A stretch of 64,000 bases of DNA. It comes from Thermoplasmatota archaeon (GTDB lineage: Archaea > Thermoplasmatota > Thermoplasmata > UBA10834). The stretch's first letter is position 1, and the number at the start of each line of letters is the position of its first letter. Of the stretch, positions 6,627 to 56,166 are shown piece by piece. The notes under the pieces were generated by a model. That model did not search any database and was not told where the DNA came from. It worked only from the letters and a program-made list of their open reading frames with translations. Made by a program: the position numbers and the translations under genes. The DNA lies in the NCBI GenBank assembly GCA_018818785.1, contig JAHIRF010000005.1:139790-203789 (forward strand), written 5' to 3'.

Positions 6627-6721
6627 TGTCTCCCCATAAGGGCAATGGCTACACTGACTAAATCCCTTTGCAGGGCAACCCTGAAGACGAAATGAATTCT
6701 CTGGACGAAGAAGCATAGGAG

Positions 6722-6793
6722 TGCGGCTGCCGGGATTCGAACCCGGGCTTGAAGCTTGGGAAGCTTCAGTCCTAACCACTAGACTACAGCCGC
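6722..6793 (-). tRNA. tRNA-Gly (anticodon CCC)
   Basis: Reverse complement folds as a 72-nt cloverleaf: acceptor GCGGCTG/CAGCCGC, anticodon loop TTCCCAA, T-arm CCGGGTTCGAATCCCGG. Confidence 0.85.
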
Positions 6794-37394: not shown

Positions 37395-37890
37395 TCCTAT
37401 CCGTCCAAACGACTATCTATTCCATCAAATTCTCACTTTCACGGGTGCCAATGTTAGCTAGTATAATATGATTTTGATATGTCATTCAGCGATATTAAGC
37501 TTGCCGACTGACGCATTCATAATGATTTCATACCGGGATTTTTTGTATGCTGGCTAACAAATTCTAGAAATGAGAACGCGGCTCAAATCATTCGATAGAC
37601 TGAAACGACTTGTTTTCGACGACCCCACACTTCAGCTCGGGCTAGAGGATTTCGGCCTGGCTGGGGATAGCTACTTATACAACACGCACCAATTAGGGTA
37701 TATTGAGGGTGCAAATAACCCCTCTTGGATGGGACGGTATGGAAGTAACGATACCCGATGCCGACATAGTGATCGAGGCCGGAGTAACGGAAGATGGCCG
37801 GATATACGGCCTCAAGAAGTACGCTGGCCGTACGGTCAAGATTGTCGTGCTAGAGGAGAAACGGAAGAAGTAAATCGACACCAAACAACA

Positions 37891-38880
37891 ATGGGTGACT
37901 GGGCCGGAGGTTGCCGCCTCCGCCCAGTCGGGAGGCCCGATACCTTGAATATCAGACCCCCAGAGAATCACATCAAGCTTGAACCGAATAAGACTTTCGC
38001 AGGTAGGACCGAAACTGGTCATGTAGGATGCAAGTTCTGCAAGAGCCACCAGGTCGTCAAGAATGGCAAGCGTGGCGATAAGCAGCTCTACAAGTGCAAA
38101 TCATGTGGCAAGCAATTCGTAGACAATGAATGCTTTCCGAGGATGCGCACCAGTGCACGAGCAATCTCCGTCGCTCTCGAAGCCTATTTCGATGGTCTCT
38201 CACTCGCTAAGGTCGTCAATCTTCTGAGGCGCGTGTATGGAATCACCATAAACAGGGCGACAGTCTGGAGGTGGATTCAGAAGTACGTTCCTTTGGTCAA
38301 GAAGATGATGGGCCAGTTCACCGCCAATGCAACTAGTTCATGGCACGCAGATGAGACTGCAGTGAAGATCAAGGGAAATATCCATTGGTTCTGGGATGGC
38401 ATCGATTATGATACGCGCTTCATCGTGATGGGTTTGCTCACTCGAAGACGTTCTGTCTCTAACGCTCGCAAGTTCTTCATTGGAGCCAAGGCACAAGTGG
38501 GCGGAAAGGCTCCTGGAGTCATAGTGACTGATGGCTGTGGCTCCTATCGGAAGGGTGTCACAAAGGCGTTCTGGAGAAAGGTCCAGCTTGGAGAATGCAC
38601 TCTTATCCAGAAAGCTGGGTTAAGGGCTAGGTTGGGTAAGCTCTCCAACAATGTGATCGAACGATTCCACAACACCCTCAAAGACCGTGTCAAGATTCTA
38701 AGAGGATTCGGGAGTCGAGGTGGCGCATCAACTGCCCTTGACGGATTCGTGATTCAGTATAACTTTCTTCGAAGGCATACCTCATTGAAAGGTATGACTC
38801 CTGCAGAAAGGGCTGGAATCAGACTACCGACCGTGATGGGATGGGGCGACCTCATACAGTGGTCTCTGAAGCGTTCATAG
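37891..38880 (+). CDS. IS6-family DDE transposase with N-terminal Zn-finger
   Basis: DDE region HADETAVKIKG...WFWDGIDYDTRFIV matches the IS6 DETyvKvnG...YlyRAVD pattern. N-terminal CKFC...CKSC zinc ribbon. The ORF-track extension from 37570 is low-complexity and probably non-coding. Confidence 0.6.
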   Translation: MGDWAGGCRLRPVGRPDTLNIRPPENHIKLEPNKTFAGRTETGHVGCKFCKSHQVVKNGKRGDKQLYKCKSCGKQFVDNECFPRMRTSARAISVALEAYFDGLSLAKVVNLLRRVYGITINRATVWRWIQKYVPLVKKMMGQFTANATSSWHADETAVKIKGNIHWFWDGIDYDTRFIVMGLLTRRRSVSNARKFFIGAKAQVGGKAPGVIVTDGCGSYRKGVTKAFWRKVQLGECTLIQKAGLRARLGKLSNNVIERFHNTLKDRVKILRGFGSRGGASTALDGFVIQYNFLRRHTSLKGMTPAERAGIRLPTVMGWGDLIQWSLKRS

Positions 38881-38897: not shown

Positions 38898-39770
38898 TCA
38901 CTTAGGTTTTCTGAAATGCATCATGTTGTGATGTTGATGGTTTATTCTGTATGCATATGGGTATCCGAAAGGGAACAATGGCTTGACGGGCTGGAGCAAC
39001 ACAACGGTCCCTGAGAACTCGTAACCAATCTTCTCCATCATTGGCACTATGTCTGCCTGGACGCATTTCTCCTTCTTCTTCACCGTGAAGTCGCTCATTA
39101 TGAGAGTGCAATATCTACCGTTCCTAAGCCTGGAGAAGGTCTTCGACATGATGTCCGAGAGAGACTGAATGAACCCACTGTACTCATCGATATTGCCCAA
39201 GTCGTTCTTTCTGTCAGTGTAGCAGGCTACACCTTCTCTCGCCCCCATGCGATACAGTTTCCCATTGTGCTGTCGTATCCCCTTTCCATTGTTCTTGAGG
39301 ATGTTATGGTAGGGCGGAGAGGTCACCACGTAGTCGACCATTGGCACATTATCGAGTTTCTTCAGGGAGTCGCCGATGATATACTCGTATTCTTCTAGAT
39401 CTCTCGACCTCAGTCTCTTCTGGGCAATCTTCTTGTAGTCTGCATTTATGTCAATTCCTATTGCTTTTCGTCCTACCTGGTTGGAGGCAAGCAGTGTCGT
39501 TCCGCTCCCAGCGAACGGGTCAAGCACCGTCATCCCTTTCTTTGTGAACAACTCGACAAGTCTTTGAATATCCCTGACGAGAAATGGTGCGGGATGACTG
39601 TAGGCTTCCTTGTCGTCTGCGCAGCCAACAGATTGCCAGAAGCTGCCGGATAGTAGGAGCCAGTCACGTCCTGACAGATTGTTCAGCTTATTCCTAATAT
39701 CATATTTGCCAGGCTTGTTCTCCTCCGACAGGGGCTTCCTCGGGTTCTTCTTCTCGGTTGTACTCTTCAT
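38898..39770 (-). CDS. site-specific DNA methyltransferase (N6A/N4C, PF01555-like)
   Basis: Motif I VLDPFAGSGTTLLAS and motif IV TSPPYH. 4-nt overlap with the upstream large methyltransferase gene. Confidence 0.75.
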   Translation of the reverse strand: MKSTTEKKNPRKPLSEENKPGKYDIRNKLNNLSGRDWLLLSGSFWQSVGCADDKEAYSHPAPFLVRDIQRLVELFTKKGMTVLDPFAGSGTTLLASNQVGRKAIGIDINADYKKIAQKRLRSRDLEEYEYIIGDSLKKLDNVPMVDYVVTSPPYHNILKNNGKGIRQHNGKLYRMGAREGVACYTDRKNDLGNIDEYSGFIQSLSDIMSKTFSRLRNGRYCTLIMSDFTVKKKEKCVQADIVPMMEKIGYEFSGTVVLLQPVKPLFPFGYPYAYRINHQHHNMMHFRKPK

Positions 39771-42468: not shown

Positions 42469-42951
42469 TCATCTTCGTGGCTGGTAAACCTTCTTATGAT
42501 AACCATTTCGTCTGAAGAGCTTATATGCTCGCGTGTAGACGTTTCGCCAATCACCCTTGCTCAGGTCCTTGTAGTGACAATTGAGGCCCCGTCTCGTCTT
42601 TGAAGCGATATAGTCTAGACAGCGATGACCATAGGCGATTCTCACATAATCGGTTGCAGTTTCTGGGCGAATTCCTATCGAGCCGACAAAACCGTCAATC
42701 ATGTCGCGTATCCCCTCAGGAGAATGCCAATAATCGAGGTCACGATGGTCTGGGCCAAATTTCTTTGCGTTCTTGTCCATTCTTCTATGAACGCTCGTTC
42801 CGTCAGTATCCTCGTATATCACTCCGTTCTTCACGAGGCGTTTCTCATCAAAATCTAGATGATAGTCCAGAGATGGCACCATTTCCACCCGGAGGCATAG
42901 ATGCCCCTTCGGCCTATTGATGATATTGCAGATCCCATCTGTTAGAGTCAA
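42469..42951 (-). CDS. hypothetical protein
   Basis: Protein-like composition, no recognisable motif. 4-nt overlap with the upstream ORF suggests co-transcription. Confidence 0.35.
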   Translation of the reverse strand: MTLTDGICNIINRPKGHLCLRVEMVPSLDYHLDFDEKRLVKNGVIYEDTDGTSVHRRMDKNAKKFGPDHRDLDYWHSPEGIRDMIDGFVGSIGIRPETATDYVRIAYGHRCLDYIASKTRRGLNCHYKDLSKGDWRNVYTRAYKLFRRNGYHKKVYQPRR

Positions 42952-43544
42952 GAACTCCGAGGTTCCCGCTCTTTCTCCCGCTTTCCAACAATTTTCATCA
43001 GCTGAGGGATGTCCTTCTCCACCCTGGCCGATAGCTTTTCAATTGCCTTCATTACAGGTCTGATTTCAAATGTCGAATTCAAGAATACGACGGTCATCGT
43101 GGGAGCATCGAAGAAGCCAAAATGAGGTGCATTGAGGGGCAGCATCGTGTGCTTCTGGAAATTCACTCCCCCTCTCCTGAAGCCAGGGTTGGCCTTCATC
43201 CACTTGTCGAGCCTTTCGTCGAAGTGGTCGAAATGGTCCCTCATCTTGCGTGAGTTCAACGGGGATGTTTCGAGGATGGAGAATCGCGACTTCAGATGCC
43301 TTGCCCTTTCTTGGCACCTTTCCGATTTGTTAGGTGGCCAGAATGATCTAGAAATACCTGCGGATGAACGGAGCAAAGCCTTCAGACAGAACCAGACCCG
43401 ATCAGCATCTCGAACAGCAATGCTGCACAACAGACCGCGATAAGCCATCTTGGCGTGCAGACAATCGTCTTCCAGTGAGTACTCGAAACCAAGAATCTCC
43501 ATATCCTCCATGCGGTCACCTAATGATGATATGGGATGTCCCAT
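42948..43544 (-). CDS. hypothetical protein
   Basis: No recognisable motif. Sits in the accessory island. Confidence 0.35.
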   Translation of the reverse strand: MGHPISSLGDRMEDMEILGFEYSLEDDCLHAKMAYRGLLCSIAVRDADRVWFCLKALLRSSAGISRSFWPPNKSERCQERARHLKSRFSILETSPLNSRKMRDHFDHFDERLDKWMKANPGFRRGGVNFQKHTMLPLNAPHFGFFDAPTMTVVFLNSTFEIRPVMKAIEKLSARVEKDIPQLMKIVGKREKEREPRSS

Positions 43545-43764
43545 CTCTTAGGATGTATGATTCTGGGCTTCTTCCTTTGGACAAGATCGGGCCTTGGCTC
43601 TCCATCGCTTCCTAGCGGAATCATGGTCATACAACTGAGAACCCTCTCGATTGTCATATGGTTTTGGGCTGCATGTAGGCTACAGGATTGGGCTGTACTA
43701 TCGGCTACCCGCAGTCAATACACTTATATGTGCCACTTGAGTAGAATGCATCCAAGGGAATACC

Positions 43765-43980
43765 GTGAAGTCATACGAAAGAGCAAGGAGCGCCGAAGGG
43801 AAGAAGAGAGAGCCGTACTGCGCCAAGGTGAGCATCGTCGAAACCCAGATGCGAAACATGTGGCCGGATGCGTACTTGATGCCCAGAGAAGCGTACTTGA
43901 TACACCTGCGCATCCTGATTAGCGAGATGACTGCGTTGATAAAGGCGACCGAGGCTGAGATCAAACGAGTAGAAAACTGA
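43765..43980 (+). CDS. hypothetical small protein
   Basis: 71-aa ORF on the strand opposite its neighbours. Weak support. Confidence 0.2.
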   Translation: MKSYERARSAEGKKREPYCAKVSIVETQMRNMWPDAYLMPREAYLIHLRILISEMTALIKATEAEIKRVEN

Positions 43981-43987
43981 TTGGTGG

Positions 43988-44671
43988 TTACTCGGAATCT
44001 GAAGGAGGCAACGAATACAGTTCCTTATCTACCATCTTGTTGAACTCCAGCTGAGCATTGCGCGCCTCCTTATACGTCTCATTCGCATCCAATGAAGACA
44101 TACCTGCGAAGAGGATTAGCACGGACCCAACGACAATCGCTGCAATCTGAAAGCTATCTCCCACCAGAGAGTATGCCAGTATTAAGAATCCCATGCCTAA
44201 CAGACATATCATCGCACGGAGGACCAGCGAGGAACACTTGTCTTCGGCAGTCCATCCCTCAGTGTAGAGTGTTGACACCTTCTCACACTCCCCGAACTTG
44301 CTGGTCAGCTCTTCTGTCAATTCCTTGAGTTGGCCATGCTCTTCGGGCGTAGGGGGCGTCTTCTCAATAAGCGCTTTGACTGCATTGAGGACTTCTGATG
44401 TGTCCTGGTCCTCAGTCATTGCCTTAATGAGACTTTTCCGAATCTCCGCAAATTCAGGGTTTCGCTTCAGGATGTTATCGATCTGTTGAACCGATTTCGT
44501 GAGGTACGTGAGGAAGAACTGATTGACAAGTCTTGAGCGCATAGCTACGTGTTGGTCCCTCCCTTCTTTTCGGAACCTCTCCGCATGAGATCGCAGGTGA
44601 ACGAAGAGCGCCACCAACGCGCCCCCACCGACCAAACACGCGGCTCCAATCGCAACAAAATCATCGGCCAT
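43988..44671 (-). CDS. hypothetical membrane protein
   Basis: N-terminal transmembrane helix (FVAIGAACLVGGGALVALFV) and two C-terminal helices around a long helical region. Confidence 0.4.
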   Translation of the reverse strand: MADDFVAIGAACLVGGGALVALFVHLRSHAERFRKEGRDQHVAMRSRLVNQFFLTYLTKSVQQIDNILKRNPEFAEIRKSLIKAMTEDQDTSEVLNAVKALIEKTPPTPEEHGQLKELTEELTSKFGECEKVSTLYTEGWTAEDKCSSLVLRAMICLLGMGFLILAYSLVGDSFQIAAIVVGSVLILFAGMSSLDANETYKEARNAQLEFNKMVDKELYSLPPSDSE

Positions 44672-44680
44672 AGTCTCTCC

Positions 44681-45310
44681 CTATTCAACTGGCGGTCCTT
44701 CGTACTCGGACTCCTTCGCAAATGATGGATAGTGCTCGTACACGTGCGTTATCAAATCATGAATGGGCATCATATTGTACTGTATCTTGATGTCTACGAG
44801 CCCCTGTCTCAAGCGCGGTTCAAGCGAATCGTAAGCCATCCTTGCTCGTTCAAAACCTTCAGGAGTCAGGCTATAGACTTCACTCCCGAAGCCTGAGGTA
44901 ATCTGGATGAGCCCTTTCCTAATCAGGTCTGAGAAGTCATTCCAAGCACCGTCTGAATACGGCCCGTACTTGTATGGTCGAAATGAGTAGAACCCTTTGA
45001 CATCTTTGAATCGCATCAAGAAGAGAAACAGTTCCTTCATGAGCCGTGTCTTCCCCGCAATCGGTTCGTTGTATCGCTGCCTCCTTCCACCCGCGAAGAG
45101 AAGCATCAGTATCCAGTCTTCTAGTCGAGTAGGAATCTCGCTAATAGTGGCTTTCCTCTCTTCCCAGGGCATCCCTAGCATTTCCCGAATCGCTCCCTTT
45201 CGAGAGCCATTATACCATTTGTGCCATTTAAGCCTAGGCCACTTCTGAGGGTGCTCATCACCATCACCCGACTTGTGACAGAACTGGCAGGACCAGGTTC
45301 GTTCATTCAT
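44681..45310 (-). CDS. hypothetical protein with an N-terminal Cys cluster and a possible winged-helix region
   Basis: WSCQFCHKSGDGDEH at the N-terminus. KTRLMKELFLFLMRF...YSFRPYKYGPYSD resembles Panacea-type or winged-helix segments. Confidence 0.35.
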   Translation of the reverse strand: MNERTWSCQFCHKSGDGDEHPQKWPRLKWHKWYNGSRKGAIREMLGMPWEERKATISEIPTRLEDWILMLLFAGGRRQRYNEPIAGKTRLMKELFLFLMRFKDVKGFYSFRPYKYGPYSDGAWNDFSDLIRKGLIQITSGFGSEVYSLTPEGFERARMAYDSLEPRLRQGLVDIKIQYNMMPIHDLITHVYEHYPSFAKESEYEGPPVE

Positions 45311-45549: not shown

Positions 45550-45864
45550 ATGGTCGAGTCAGAGCGTGTCACGATAAGACTACCGAATGAGCGCGTCCAG
45601 GCGCTCCAGGCTCTAGTGGATCAGGGGAAGTTCTCCACGCTCTCCGACGCGATCAGAGCCGCGATAGACAAGTTCGTCGAGAGCGAATTCACACCAGAAT
45701 ATATAGAGAAGGTAACAGTCGAGCTGCCTAAGGGCAATGTCGTGAACCTGAAGCAGCTGGTTCAGGACGGCGACTCCGTTTCTGTAGACGACGCCATCAG
45801 AAACGCTGTGCGCGAATACATACGCAAGAGATTGTCACAAGCGATGCAAGAACTCGAAAGGTGA
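45550..45864 (+). CDS. tandem ribbon-helix-helix (CopG/Arc-like) DNA-binding protein
   Basis: Two RHH units in one chain (VTIRLPNERVQALQALVDQGKFSTLSDAIRAAI and VTVELPKGNVVNLKQLVQDGDSVSVDDAIRNAVREYI). Confidence 0.55.
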   Translation: MVESERVTIRLPNERVQALQALVDQGKFSTLSDAIRAAIDKFVESEFTPEYIEKVTVELPKGNVVNLKQLVQDGDSVSVDDAIRNAVREYIRKRLSQAMQELER

Positions 45865-45959
45865 CGATCCACAAACCGAGCGCAGAGGATGGGAAGCAGA
45901 TGGCCACGCACGCATGTATGCATGAGCGAACGCCCTCTTCAGGGAGGTGCAATTAGCGC

Positions 45960-47009
45960 ATGCTCAACAAGTTGATCCAGGATGCCCTCGAGACGGAGCG
46001 CGACTTCGAGGTACATCTTGCTCCGAAGATATGCGTCGTGGGCTGCGGTGGCGGCGGTTCGAACAGTGTGCACAGGATCAATAGAGTAGCGCTGGAAGGT
46101 GTCGACACCATCGCTATCAACACGGACAAGTTCCACTTGGCCAGGACCGATGCGAAGAAAAGGCTGCTCATAGGCGAGCATGCGACATTCGGATATGGCA
46201 CGGGCGGAGACCCCGATATAGGCGAGAAGGTAGCGTATGACGCGATGGACAAGATAGAGGCGCTGGTGCGCCAATACGATATCGTGTTCGTCACGGCTGG
46301 CATGGGCGGCGGAACGGGCACGGGAGTCGCGCCAGTCGTAGCAGAGGCTGCGCGAAGACACGGCGCGATATCAGTCGCACTCGTGACGATACCCTTCGAT
46401 ATCGAGAAAGGGAGGTTGCGCGTCGCGTTCAACGGGATCGCGAAGCTGAGGGAGAGCGCTCACAGCACGATCATACTAGACAACAACCGTCTGTTGAAGA
46501 TCGCGCCCAAGTTGCCGATCGAACAGGCGTTCATGGTGATGGACCAGCTCATCGTCGAGGTCGTCAAGGGTGTGACCGAAACGGTGTGCGAGACCAGCAT
46601 GATCAATCTGGACTTCGCAGACTTCAGGAGCCTGATGCTCAAGGGTGGCGCGTCCACCGTGCTCTACGGTGAGAGCGAGGACGCTCAGAAGGTGGTCGCA
46701 GAGGCGATCAGCAACCCACTACTGGATATCGACTTCGAAGGCGCCACAGGCGCGATGATCCATCTCACCGGTGGTCCGTCGCTATCCCTGCGGAAGGCGT
46801 ACGAAGTCTTCAACGGTATCACGAACAAACTCGGAGATTGCGCCCACATCAAACTGGGCGCAAGAATAGATCCGGACATAGGCCAGAGCATCAAGCTGAT
46901 GGCGATAGTCACCGGCGTCCGGACACCCGAAGATACGGACGCGTTCAGGCTCCCAGAAATAGACGGGCTGATCAGCGCCCGGATCGCCATGGCAAACGTG
47001 TTAGGATGA
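45960..47009 (+). CDS. FtsZ-family GTPase, divergent third paralog
   Basis: GCGGGGSN and GGGTGTG tubulin/FtsZ signatures. Shorter than the other two copies and lacks the usual C-terminal tail. Confidence 0.7.
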   Translation: MLNKLIQDALETERDFEVHLAPKICVVGCGGGGSNSVHRINRVALEGVDTIAINTDKFHLARTDAKKRLLIGEHATFGYGTGGDPDIGEKVAYDAMDKIEALVRQYDIVFVTAGMGGGTGTGVAPVVAEAARRHGAISVALVTIPFDIEKGRLRVAFNGIAKLRESAHSTIILDNNRLLKIAPKLPIEQAFMVMDQLIVEVVKGVTETVCETSMINLDFADFRSLMLKGGASTVLYGESEDAQKVVAEAISNPLLDIDFEGATGAMIHLTGGPSLSLRKAYEVFNGITNKLGDCAHIKLGARIDPDIGQSIKLMAIVTGVRTPEDTDAFRLPEIDGLISARIAMANVLG

Positions 47010-55419: not shown

Positions 55420-55678
55420 CGATGTGTCCTTGCTCCGATCATCTGGGTGCGTCTAGAGTCGACGCATTTCCCGTCAGTGTGATAACCCGTGGCAATGGTG
55501 CAGTTAATAATATTTGCCCAAAACGCTATTATTATTATCCAATTATTATAGTACAATACACCAAATATATGCTGTCTGGAGGGGAATCCGGCCCAAACCT
55601 CTCGATGGATGATAGTCATTAAATACTTGAACGAACTACACGGGCTGCTAACGCAGCCTAGGGTATCTACGCCGCCCA

Positions 55679-55822
55679 GGGCCCGTAGCTCAGCTAGGTA
55701 GGAATCTCATGCATTCTCGATGTTATGGTTTCCCTAGAAAGAGCATCTGCCTTTTAAGCAGGTGGCCCGGGGTTCGAATGACTACGCCATACAGACTAGT
55801 CTCGGAAATCCCCGCGGGCCCG
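55679..55822 (+). tRNA. tRNA-Lys (anticodon UUU) interrupted by two putative non-canonical introns (D-arm about 40 nt, T-arm about 30 nt)
   Basis: Perfect acceptor GGGCCCG/CGGGCCC. D-stem GCTC...GAGC separated by 49 nt instead of 8-10. Anticodon arm TCTGC-CTTTTAA-GCAGG has no intron. T-arm CGGGG-TTCGAAT-[30 nt]-CCCCG. Confidence 0.5.
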
Positions 55823-55908
55823 CCGGGCGTCGACTGCGGACCGGGGGAGAAACGGAACGAATCCCACGGTTTCTCTGTAGAATACCCTTCGCCAGTATGG
55901 TGATTAGG

Positions 55909-56166
55909 ATGGCCGGAGAATTTAACGTCTTGGAGCATGAGCTCGTACCCGAGTATCATCTTCTGTCGGAGAAGGAGGCCGAGAAGGTCCTTAAGCAGCT
56001 GAAGCTTACGAAGGACCAGCTTCCAAAGACAAGGATAACTGACCCGTGCATTCGCACGCTCGATGCGATTGTTGGGCCAGTCGAAGAGGGAATGGTAGTC
56101 AAGATCGTCAGGCGCAGCTCAACGAGCGGCGTGTCGATCTGTTACAGACTTGTAGTGCGGGGGTGA
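55909..56166 (+). CDS. rpoH: DNA-directed RNA polymerase subunit H (Rpb5 homolog)
   Basis: [24 protein letters not shown]...CYRLVV. An alternative ATG lies at 55897. Confidence 0.8.

Follow-up and report, generated by a model that had tools for sequence, protein, structure and literature searches.

Can a euryarchaeal genome maintain an essential transfer RNA (tRNA) gene that is interrupted twice outside the anticodon loop, and with which enzyme would it splice the transcript? The question is raised by a locus in a 64,000-nucleotide (nt) stretch of DNA from a Thermoplasmatota archaeon (the whole stretch is referred to below as the window), for which a first-pass annotation made from the letters alone had proposed a gene for tRNA-Lys(UUU) whose two introns both lie at non-canonical sites, with none at position 37/38, in a euryarchaeal-type context. 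The anatomy of the locus, its bulge-helix-bulge (BHB) motifs and the covariation among relatives bear this proposal out, and we consider it very likely that window 55679-55822 is a functional tRNA-Lys(UUU) gene, transcribed from a TATA promoter, with two protein-spliced introns removed by the splicing endonuclease EndA. The most interesting point is how both introns are handled by an α'2-type EndA that lacks every known specificity loop.

Gene anatomy, orthologues and metagenome copies

The gene, on the forward strand like all features below unless stated, has three exons of 21, 39 and 14 nt (74 nt joined) and two introns. The exons are collinear and all lie inside 144 nt; the gene is neither split nor permuted. 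Exon 1 (55679-55699, 21 nt, G1 to U20; GGGCCCGTAGCTCAGCTAGGT) holds the 5' acceptor strand, U8 and A9, the 5' D-stem strand GCTC and the D-loop sequence AGCUAGGU, and is followed by intron 1 (55700-55739, 40 nt; AGGAATCTCATGCATTCTCGATGTTATGGTTTCCCTAGAA) in the D-loop at position 20/21. Exon 2 (55740-55778, 39 nt, A21 to A59; AGAGCATCTGCCTTTTAAGCAGGTGGCCCGGGGTTCGAA) carries the 3' D-stem strand GAGC, the anticodon arm, the variable loop, the 5' T-stem strand and the T-loop bases UUCGAA, with the anticodon TTT at 55753-55755; the anticodon loop is intact and has no 37/38 intron. Intron 2 (55779-55808, 30 nt; TGACTACGCCATACAGACTAGTCTCGGAAA) interrupts the T-loop at position 59/60, and exon 3 (55809-55822, 14 nt; TCCCCGCGGGCCCG) supplies U60, the 3' T-stem strand CCCCG, the 3' acceptor strand CGGGCCC and the discriminator G73. 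CCA is not encoded, CCG standing directly 3' of exon 3.

The pairings listed in the first-pass annotation were all found in place: seven of seven acceptor pairs between GGGCCCG (55679-55685) and CGGGCCC (55815-55821), with the discriminator G at 55822; D-stem halves GCTC (55688-55691) and GAGC (55741-55744), 49 nt apart; the anticodon loop CTTTTAA at 55751-55757; a T-arm of CGGGG-TTCGAAT (55768-55779) and CCCCG (55810-55814) separated by 30 nt; the D-arm pairing CTAGG/CCTAG; and the palindrome AGACTAGTCT in the T-arm insert (55793-55802). With the introns removed, the joined 74-mer was called by ARAGORN as tRNA-Lys(ttt) with a regular cloverleaf. The unspliced locus escapes both ARAGORN, with or without its -i option, and the tRNA model of Rfam, at the gathering threshold and also at E<=5; since these misses come from the limits of the tools, they are not evidence against the gene. 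Because both programs are blind to it, metagenome-assembled genomes (MAGs) of the clade can seem to lack tRNA-Lys(UUU), an apparent loss that affects inferences on completeness and codon usage.

The euryarchaeal context that had been proposed for the gene agrees with the RNA polymerase subunit RpoB encoded downstream. The first 600 amino acids of the window RpoB are 100% identical to those of one 'Thermoplasmata archaeon' MAG, 86-98% identical to those of about 30 other Thermoplasmata MAGs and 70-78% identical to those of Methanomassiliicoccales, and the genomic context is therefore truly euryarchaeal. By these identities, we place the host in an uncultured Thermoplasmata lineage that is sister to the Methanomassiliicoccales.

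Among 80 related genome loci, exon 2 of the tRNA-Lys gene lies upstream of rpoH at the same place in 76, and both inserts are found at the same two positions in 75, which belong to uncultured Thermoplasmata and Methanomassiliicoccaceae. As for the loci without a match, one (L079) has no tRNA there, another (L028) has a 100-N assembly gap and the others run into contig ends. The window derives from a MAG, and one could ask whether a chimeric join or mis-assembly within the tRNA gene, or faulty binning, had produced the inserts; but the arrangement recurs in 75 independent assemblies that come from many studies, and again in 86 metagenome contigs, its intron sequences being specific to each lineage, and we regard the probability of such an artefact as negligible. 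Intron 1 measures 29-41 nt in the genome loci and 36-42 nt in the metagenome contigs; intron 2 measures 29-34 nt in the relatives.

The exons and the inserts have evolved very differently. In an alignment of 25 diverse precursors, 64 of 74 exon columns are invariant (96% pairwise identity), against 2 of 62 columns in the intron interiors (34% identity), and the 12 intron nucleotides belonging to the central helices and bulges of the splice motifs resemble the exons, 9 of them being invariant (93%). Exons and splice nucleotides that are kept while intron interiors drift are the signature of an expressed gene. Exon 1 is invariant or almost so across 62 distinct precursor sequences, exon 2, present in 31 clade loci, is 100% identical in 30 of them and has a single substitution in the remaining one, and the anticodon stem shows compensatory GC/CG/AU changes between clades (alignment pair 74-82).

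The first-pass annotation had named a degraded pseudogene alongside an intact tRNA-Lys elsewhere as the outcome that would count against it, and the failure of ARAGORN and Rfam to recognise the locus could be taken to favour a gene broken by two insertions. The exons, however, are under strong purifying selection, with the 96% identity maintained over an order-level spread while intron interiors fall to 34%; the acceptor and anticodon stems carry compensatory changes; the promoter is conserved; and both inserts contain a covarying splice motif. A search for an intact intronless twin points the same way. Among 241 million metagenome records, a spliced D-junction running into the clade's exon 2 occurs 0 times, against 90 occurrences of that exon preceded by the 3' end of intron 1 (86 complete two-intron genes, 3 cut at contig ends and 1 with the D-loop intron only). 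Finally, an intronless orthologue stands at the very same locus in Methanomethylophilaceae. We therefore hold a pseudogene to be most improbable and read the tRNA-Lys(UUU) gene as functional; it is probably the only gene for this tRNA in its host.

Two natural variants show how the introns come and go. The Methanomethylophilaceae orthologue (L068) is a contiguous 74-nt tRNA-Lys gene by ARAGORN call, and a metagenome contig (L103; Ga0315314_1017244, about 800-1000) has a longer D-loop intron and a contiguous T-arm, …GGGGTTCGAATCCCCG…. As the latter has the D-loop intron only, the two introns can be gained or lost independently. Judged from their distribution, both have long resided in this one gene and been inherited vertically. 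The tRNA-Lys of L103 is misread by ARAGORN as an intron-bearing tRNA-Gly.

Splice motifs and intron positions

Archaeal introns of this kind are recognised by a 4-bp helix between two 3-nt bulges, with a cut after the second bulge nucleotide, and we applied this cleavage rule independently at all four bulges of the precursor. At the first junction, the central helix H pairs the exon strand C16 U17 A17a G18 (CTAG, 55694-55697) with CTAG at 55734-55737. The 5' bulge (55698-55700) is made of G19, U20 and the first intron nucleotide, A, with a predicted cut after 55699, and has 3 nt in the RNAalifold consensus. The inner helix h' pairs GGAA (55701-55704) with TTCC (55730-55733), which together with the intron strand of H makes up the 3' strands of the motif (55730-55737). 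The 3' bulge (55738-55740; A, A and A21), with a predicted cut after 55739, leads into the D-stem and lies opposite the unpaired A14 and G15 (55692-55693), forming a 3x2 internal loop and an HBh'-like motif. Helix H (CUAG/CUAG, 4 bp) is invariant in all sequences and 100% paired across the 25 precursors, and the 3' bulge reads AA or AG plus A21 in every sequence.

At the second junction, helix H pairs U54 U55 C56 G57 (TTCG, 55773-55776) with CGGA (55803-55806) and stacks directly on the T-stem, which serves as helix h; every sequence has either CGGA or CGAA as its intron strand, and the helix too is 100% paired. The 5' bulge (55777-55779; A58, A59 and the first intron nucleotide, U), with a predicted cut after 55778, faces one unpaired nucleotide (T 55802), giving a 3x1 loop and an hBH-like motif. 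The inner helix h' pairs GACTA (55780-55784) with TAGTC (55797-55801) and is 5-9 bp long in relatives; its 3' strand, the extra T and the intron strand of H together span 55797-55806. The 3' bulge (55807-55809; A, A and U60), with a predicted cut after 55808, is the strict side, with 3 nt between H and the T-stem, and consists of AA, AG, AT or AC plus T60 in every sequence.

Given the 25 precursors, RNAalifold recovered the cloverleaf and both BHB geometries unaided, with compensatory changes at 13 pairs. Its D arm has the D-stem, unpaired A14 and G15, the 4-bp H, a 3-nt bulge, h' and a 3-nt bulge on the return strand; its T arm has the T-stem, the 4-bp H, a 3-nt bulge, h', one unpaired nucleotide, H again and a 3-nt bulge. 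All four bulges are thus 3 nt long in the consensus; in the window sequence, the alternative pairs G19-C and A58-U are able to reduce the 5' bulges to 2 nt. Paired cells amount to 95.9%, versus 87.9% after shuffling and at most 48.7% in slid registers, and covariation reaches 0.233 versus 0.096 when shuffled (0/500). The H helices never vary, and compensatory changes are found at 5 of 6 pairs of h' in intron 1 and at 6 of 6 in intron 2. In intron 1, h' takes the forms GGAA/TTCC, GGAT/ATCC, GGAC/GTCC, GGAG/CTCC, AGA/TCT and GGGG/CCCC and is 84% paired versus 68% when shuffled (0/2000). In intron 2, the register with one extra 3' nucleotide is 73% paired versus 49% (0/2000), and RNAalifold also leaves that extra column unpaired. 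We rejected the strict register of this helix, which gives no covariation signal (47% versus 47% shuffled), although it does exist in three sequences (L052, L056 and L059).

Both intron positions can be fixed from these data. The first-pass annotation had likened the insertion sites to 22/23 and 59/60; the second site stands, and the D-arm intron belongs instead at 20/21. Among relatives, the first nucleotide of intron 1, directly after U20, may be A or T, whereas every spliced sequence has A21; 20/21 is also the one position that suits both bulges. These observations rule out 21/22 and 22/23. For intron 2, the mature T-loop TTCGAAT is constant in all 62 sequences, supporting 59/60, the site that in the T-loop corresponds exactly to canonical position 37/38. 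Cuts after the second bulge nucleotides yield a mature sequence exactly equal to that of the intronless L068, and a T-arm also equal to that of L103; cuts after the first bulge nucleotide would not reproduce these sequences. The BHB rule thus places intron 1 at 20/21, in agreement with the A/T variation and L068, and intron 2 at 59/60, in agreement with the constant T-loop and both variants.

BHB motifs can therefore be drawn at both junctions, which had been set as a test of the proposal, with one side relaxed in each and covariation behind them. Intron 1 combines H, a strict 5' bulge and h', and intron 2 the T-stem as h, a strict 3' bulge and H; these correspond to the relaxed classes HBh' and hBH reportedly defined by Marck and Grosjean in 2003. 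Both motifs retain a helix past the relaxed side and are milder than a bulge-helix-loop.

In the mechanism that we propose, transcription from the gene's own TATA promoter would give a precursor, about 144 nt long without its leader and trailer, in which each intron would pair with the loop that it interrupts (C16-G18 with CUAG, U54-G57 with CGGA) to form the BHB. EndA would cut after the second nucleotide of each of the four bulges, and an RtcB-type ligase would join the exons into the 74-nt tRNA. From archaeal tRNA biology, RNase P and 3' processing together with CCA addition, expected because CCA is not encoded, would complete maturation. In the mature tRNA, G18/G19 and U54-G57 form the elbow between the D-loop and T-loop. 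In the precursor, the central helices would sequester these same nucleotides, so that the L-shape could form only once both introns are out. The introns may persist because this masking makes the elbow depend on complete splicing; a regulatory or protective role of the masking is speculative, one such idea, proposed before, being a defence against elements that insert themselves into tRNA genes (PMC3488258).

Retention of the inserts, in a mature tRNA with enlarged D and T arms, would be compatible with the minimum free energy fold of the window precursor: at -56.4 kcal/mol (z = -2.97) it is a cloverleaf that takes both inserts as extensions of the D and T arms. Yet the inserts pair with G18/G19 and U54-G57, which are needed for the elbow, and orthologues exist that lack one (L103) or both (L068) of them. 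What has been conserved, moreover, is the 4-bp helix with its 3-nt bulges, an EndA substrate, and not the length of the arms (29-41 and 29-34 nt). On this evidence, we give retention hardly any credence and keep to the spliced gene.

Of the two introns, the one in the T-loop has evolved more slowly in the window's clade (17 distinct interiors among 82 metagenome copies, against 44 for the D-loop intron) and retains the loop motif AC(A/C)GAC, which could reflect either a short divergence time or added constraint. We considered whether the introns might contain a box C/D guide RNA and set the idea aside: they are 29-41 nt long, and between clades only the splice motif is conserved.

The splicing endonuclease and known systems

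Finding the enzyme of the clade required more than a single query sequence. With M. jannaschii EndA (a 100% match to PDB 1a79), tblastn found no EndA in the window or the 80 loci, and Pfam scans of 20 open reading frames around the locus returned housekeeping genes only and no EndA. As a single-sequence query it matched only Methanococci and DPANN, but an alignment of homologues of about 300 amino acids with two repeats reached EndA of Thermoplasmata. One of these, P0120 (351 amino acids), is encoded on CP070736.1 (L081 3001-4056), in the genome of locus L028, whose RpoB is 90% identical to that of the window. EndA orthologues stand in the same HSP20-EndA-GAPDH synteny in this genome and in two other Thermoplasmata MAGs (L081, L172 and L173).

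Pfam recognises the EndA N-domain and catalytic domain twice in the single P0120 polypeptide, and both repeats align with M. jannaschii EndA end to end. The N-terminal repeat has Phe in place of the catalytic Tyr and Ser in place of His; all three catalytic residues, Tyr, His and Lys, are intact in the C-terminal repeat. With two tandem repeats of which only the C-terminal has an intact triad, P0120 is of the α'2 type. By its sequence, we thus assign the clade's EndA to α'2, with catalysis through the C-terminal repeat; the dimer is predicted by type only. The N-terminal repeat is full-length, though catalytically dead, and includes residues ~100-122, which are deleted in A. fulgidus. The best full-length PDB match of P0120 is the fused M. 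kandleri enzyme (5x89, E 7e-40).

Three loops have been tied to broad specificity, namely the crenarchaea-specific loop (CSL or L1), the ASL loop (L2) and the Nanoarchaeal-type L3, and at the level of sequence P0120 appears to carry none of them. No insertion was found in P0120 at the CSL/ASL site (A. fulgidus E174-L178; PMC3241643, PMC3488258) in a sequence-level comparison, the segment being equal in length in P0120 ('FGKLIGPILQLSL'), A. fulgidus ('YGSEKGDLVTLSL') and M. jannaschii ('YGNVEGNFLSLSL'). The segment between Tyr and His is 2 residues shorter than in M. jannaschii, and there is no extended basic loop at the catalytic His. The β-turn at the CSL site opens with a conserved Lys or Arg ([FY]G[KR]xxG).

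A conserved two-intron gene together with a loop-less α'2 enzyme, the one endonuclease identified in the lineage, conflicts with the textbook rule on narrow α'2 enzymes. According to reviews, euryarchaea with α4 or α'2 enzymes carry a single strict-BHB intron at the canonical 37/38 position (PMC4090602), only (αβ)2 and ε2 enzymes cut non-canonical introns (PMC5829648), and non-canonical or multiple introns have co-evolved with those loop-bearing enzymes (PMC4090602, PMC5829648). A single essential gene that has been kept for so long offers a clean natural pair of substrate and enzyme with which to probe how strict α'2 enzymes are.

Several points weigh against splicing by this EndA as we describe it. 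Excision of the introns is predicted from DNA sequence, and neither intron forms the strict hBHBh' motif. The enzyme does not come from the window genome, and in the host of P0120 the tRNA-Lys locus itself (L028) falls in the N-gap; since P0143 and P0144 are likewise from other assemblies, gene and EndA are linked at the level of the clade only. That clade's EndA is of the loop-less α'2 type reported as narrow, and the wild-type α'2 EndA of A. fulgidus 'hardly cleaved' a D-loop BHB intron (PMC3241643) and 'barely cleaved' a T-loop intron with a relaxed BHB (PMC3488258). A second EndA paralogue may also exist.

The last two points lead to another agent, such as a second endonuclease paralogue (for instance an α/β pair) or another RNase, as the one that splices these introns, and the poor activity reported for loop-less α'2 enzymes on D-loop, T-loop and relaxed introns (PMC3241643, PMC3488258, PMC5829648) would fit it. 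Against this stand the description of the euryarchaeal group that includes Thermoplasmata as α'2-only (PMC5829648), the syntenic EndA orthologue in three genomes of the clade, and the non-canonical introns counted in other orders for which the α'2 type is inferred, Methanosarcinales (11) and Methanocellales (4) (PMC8450103, Table S7), which suggest that α'2 enzymes cope. We consider another agent unlikely and retain EndA. That the clade's α'2 EndA has truly broadened its specificity, to D- and T-loop sites and one-sided relaxed BHBs with none of the three known loops, is a tentative idea that we would put below even chances; the features behind it may be the undegraded N-terminal repeat, which resembles the M. 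kandleri β unit, or the Lys/Arg at the CSL site. If true, broad specificity would have been reached by yet another independent route, and subunit type and loop content would fail to predict the introns of a lineage.

Multiple-intron tRNA genes of Thermoproteales and other TACK archaea were reportedly described by Sugahara et al. in 2007 and 2008. Multi-intron tRNAs with BHB or relaxed BHB motifs are on record from Thermoproteales and other TACK archaea, Nanoarchaeum, Korarchaeum and ARMAN, and among euryarchaea from M. kandleri and M. thermautotrophicus (PMC4033280). The window gene shares with those of Thermoproteales and other TACK archaea its collinear exons, its two short non-canonical introns that form BHB or relaxed BHB motifs with the adjoining exon, and the normal cloverleaf left by their removal. 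Unlike the window clade, with its loop-less α'2, those hosts have an (αβ)2 EndA with the CSL, and they carry many introns, often alike between genes (intron transposition), in contrast to the two vertically inherited introns of one gene here. The pre-tRNA-Glu(UUC) of M. kandleri (Kaneta et al. 2018, PMC5829648) is similar in its relaxed HBh' D-loop intron and in an EndA without CSL or ASL loop; it differs by an extra canonical 37/38 intron and no T-loop intron, where here the anticodon loop is intact, and by an EndA of separate α and β subunits that is slow on the relaxed intron in vitro, where here there is a single two-repeat polypeptide. The ARMAN-2 system (2012, PMC3488258) likewise has a T-loop intron with a relaxed BHB, but its three-unit ε2 EndA requires the ASL loop to cleave it, and the window clade has no ASL-type insertion.

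Automated predictions had already counted such introns in relatives, and the element is not new in kind. In Table S7 of the tRNAscan-SE 2.0 paper (Chan et al. 2021, PMC8450103), the three Methanomassiliicoccales genomes have 138 tRNA genes with 13 canonical and 6 non-canonical introns and one two-intron gene among them, out of 25 non-canonical introns and seven two-intron genes in all Euryarchaea. This two-intron gene is very probably an orthologue of the one in the window, whose lineage is a sister clade outside that Methanomassiliicoccales set (78% RpoB identity). Those counts share with our gene the non-canonical introns and a two-intron gene; they are given at the level of the clade, with no gene, position, motif, conservation or enzyme discussed, and we found no paper text on tRNA introns of Methanomassiliicoccales or Thermoplasmata, the supplementary table being the only mention. 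The first-pass annotation had called such a gene unusual in a euryarchaeal setting. This holds against the reviews of α'2 enzymes, but the gene is less isolated than supposed, being conserved in Methanomassiliicoccaceae and their sister clade and foreshadowed by the Table S7 counts. What is added here to a known kind of intron is its ancient conservation and its coexistence with a loop-less α'2 EndA.

Promoter, flanks and neighbouring genes

A putative promoter, recognised from the archaeal TATA consensus, lies 60 nt 5' of tRNA position 1 as TTAAATA (55619-55625). Every lineage examined has the element (TTAAATA, TTATATA or TTTAAATA) between -51 and -61, the intronless L068 among them, and in the window the position of the element implies a 5' leader of about 25-30 nt.

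On the 3' side, rpoH (55897-56166, Rpb5_C) starts about 75 nt after the tRNA gene and is followed by an unsplit rpoB and then rpoA'/A''. By Pfam, the 5' neighbours encode a flavodoxin, a malic enzyme, a radical-SAM protein, a primase large subunit, a SpoU methylase and a pseudouridine synthase. The sole tRNA that standard tools report in the 64 kb is an intronless tRNA-Gly(CCC) at 6721-6793 (-), so interruption is not universal among the host's tRNAs. A T-arm pattern search turned up only this tRNA-Gly, a custom scan of the window and loci for extra T-loop introns returned nothing credible, its 155 matches being background in coding sequence, and ARAGORN produced no further tRNA finding over 1.6 Mb of collected sequence.

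Elsewhere in the window, a DDE transposase gene (IS240/IS66-like, rve_3; 37570-38880, +) adjoins an N6/N4 DNA methylase gene (38898-39770, -), and the open reading frames neighbouring this pair (42469-45310) have no Pfam match; the region may be a mobile or defence islet. A match to the box C/D sRNA sR10 at 45840-45888 (+), just 5' of ftsZ (45960-47009), stays below the Rfam threshold (18.2 bits, E 3.5, gathering score 45) and is probably due to chance.

The flanks of the tRNA gene have features of their own. The stretch between the TATA element and the tRNA (55635-55678) is unusually conserved in the window's clade (ACTACACGgCCTGCTAACGCAGCCtaGGGTATC...CGCCGCCCA), and a hairpin, GGGCTGC-TAAC-GCAGCCT (55642-55659), spans the expected transcription start. 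The end of the leader, CGCCC (55673-55677), is complementary to the start of the trailer, GGGCG (55825-55829), and this pairing lengthens the acceptor stem past an internal loop (A-1 opposite G73 C C). Many relatives have leader-trailer helices of 4-10 bp with differing sequences (CCAA/TTGG, GCTACCAA/TTGGTAGT and TTACTTACC/GGTAGGTGA), and the complementarity is also seen in L004, L012, L017, L054, L060, L067 and others; it is absent from the Methanomassiliicoccus-like group. The mean length of these helices is 4.88, versus 3.91 with shuffled partners (0/500).

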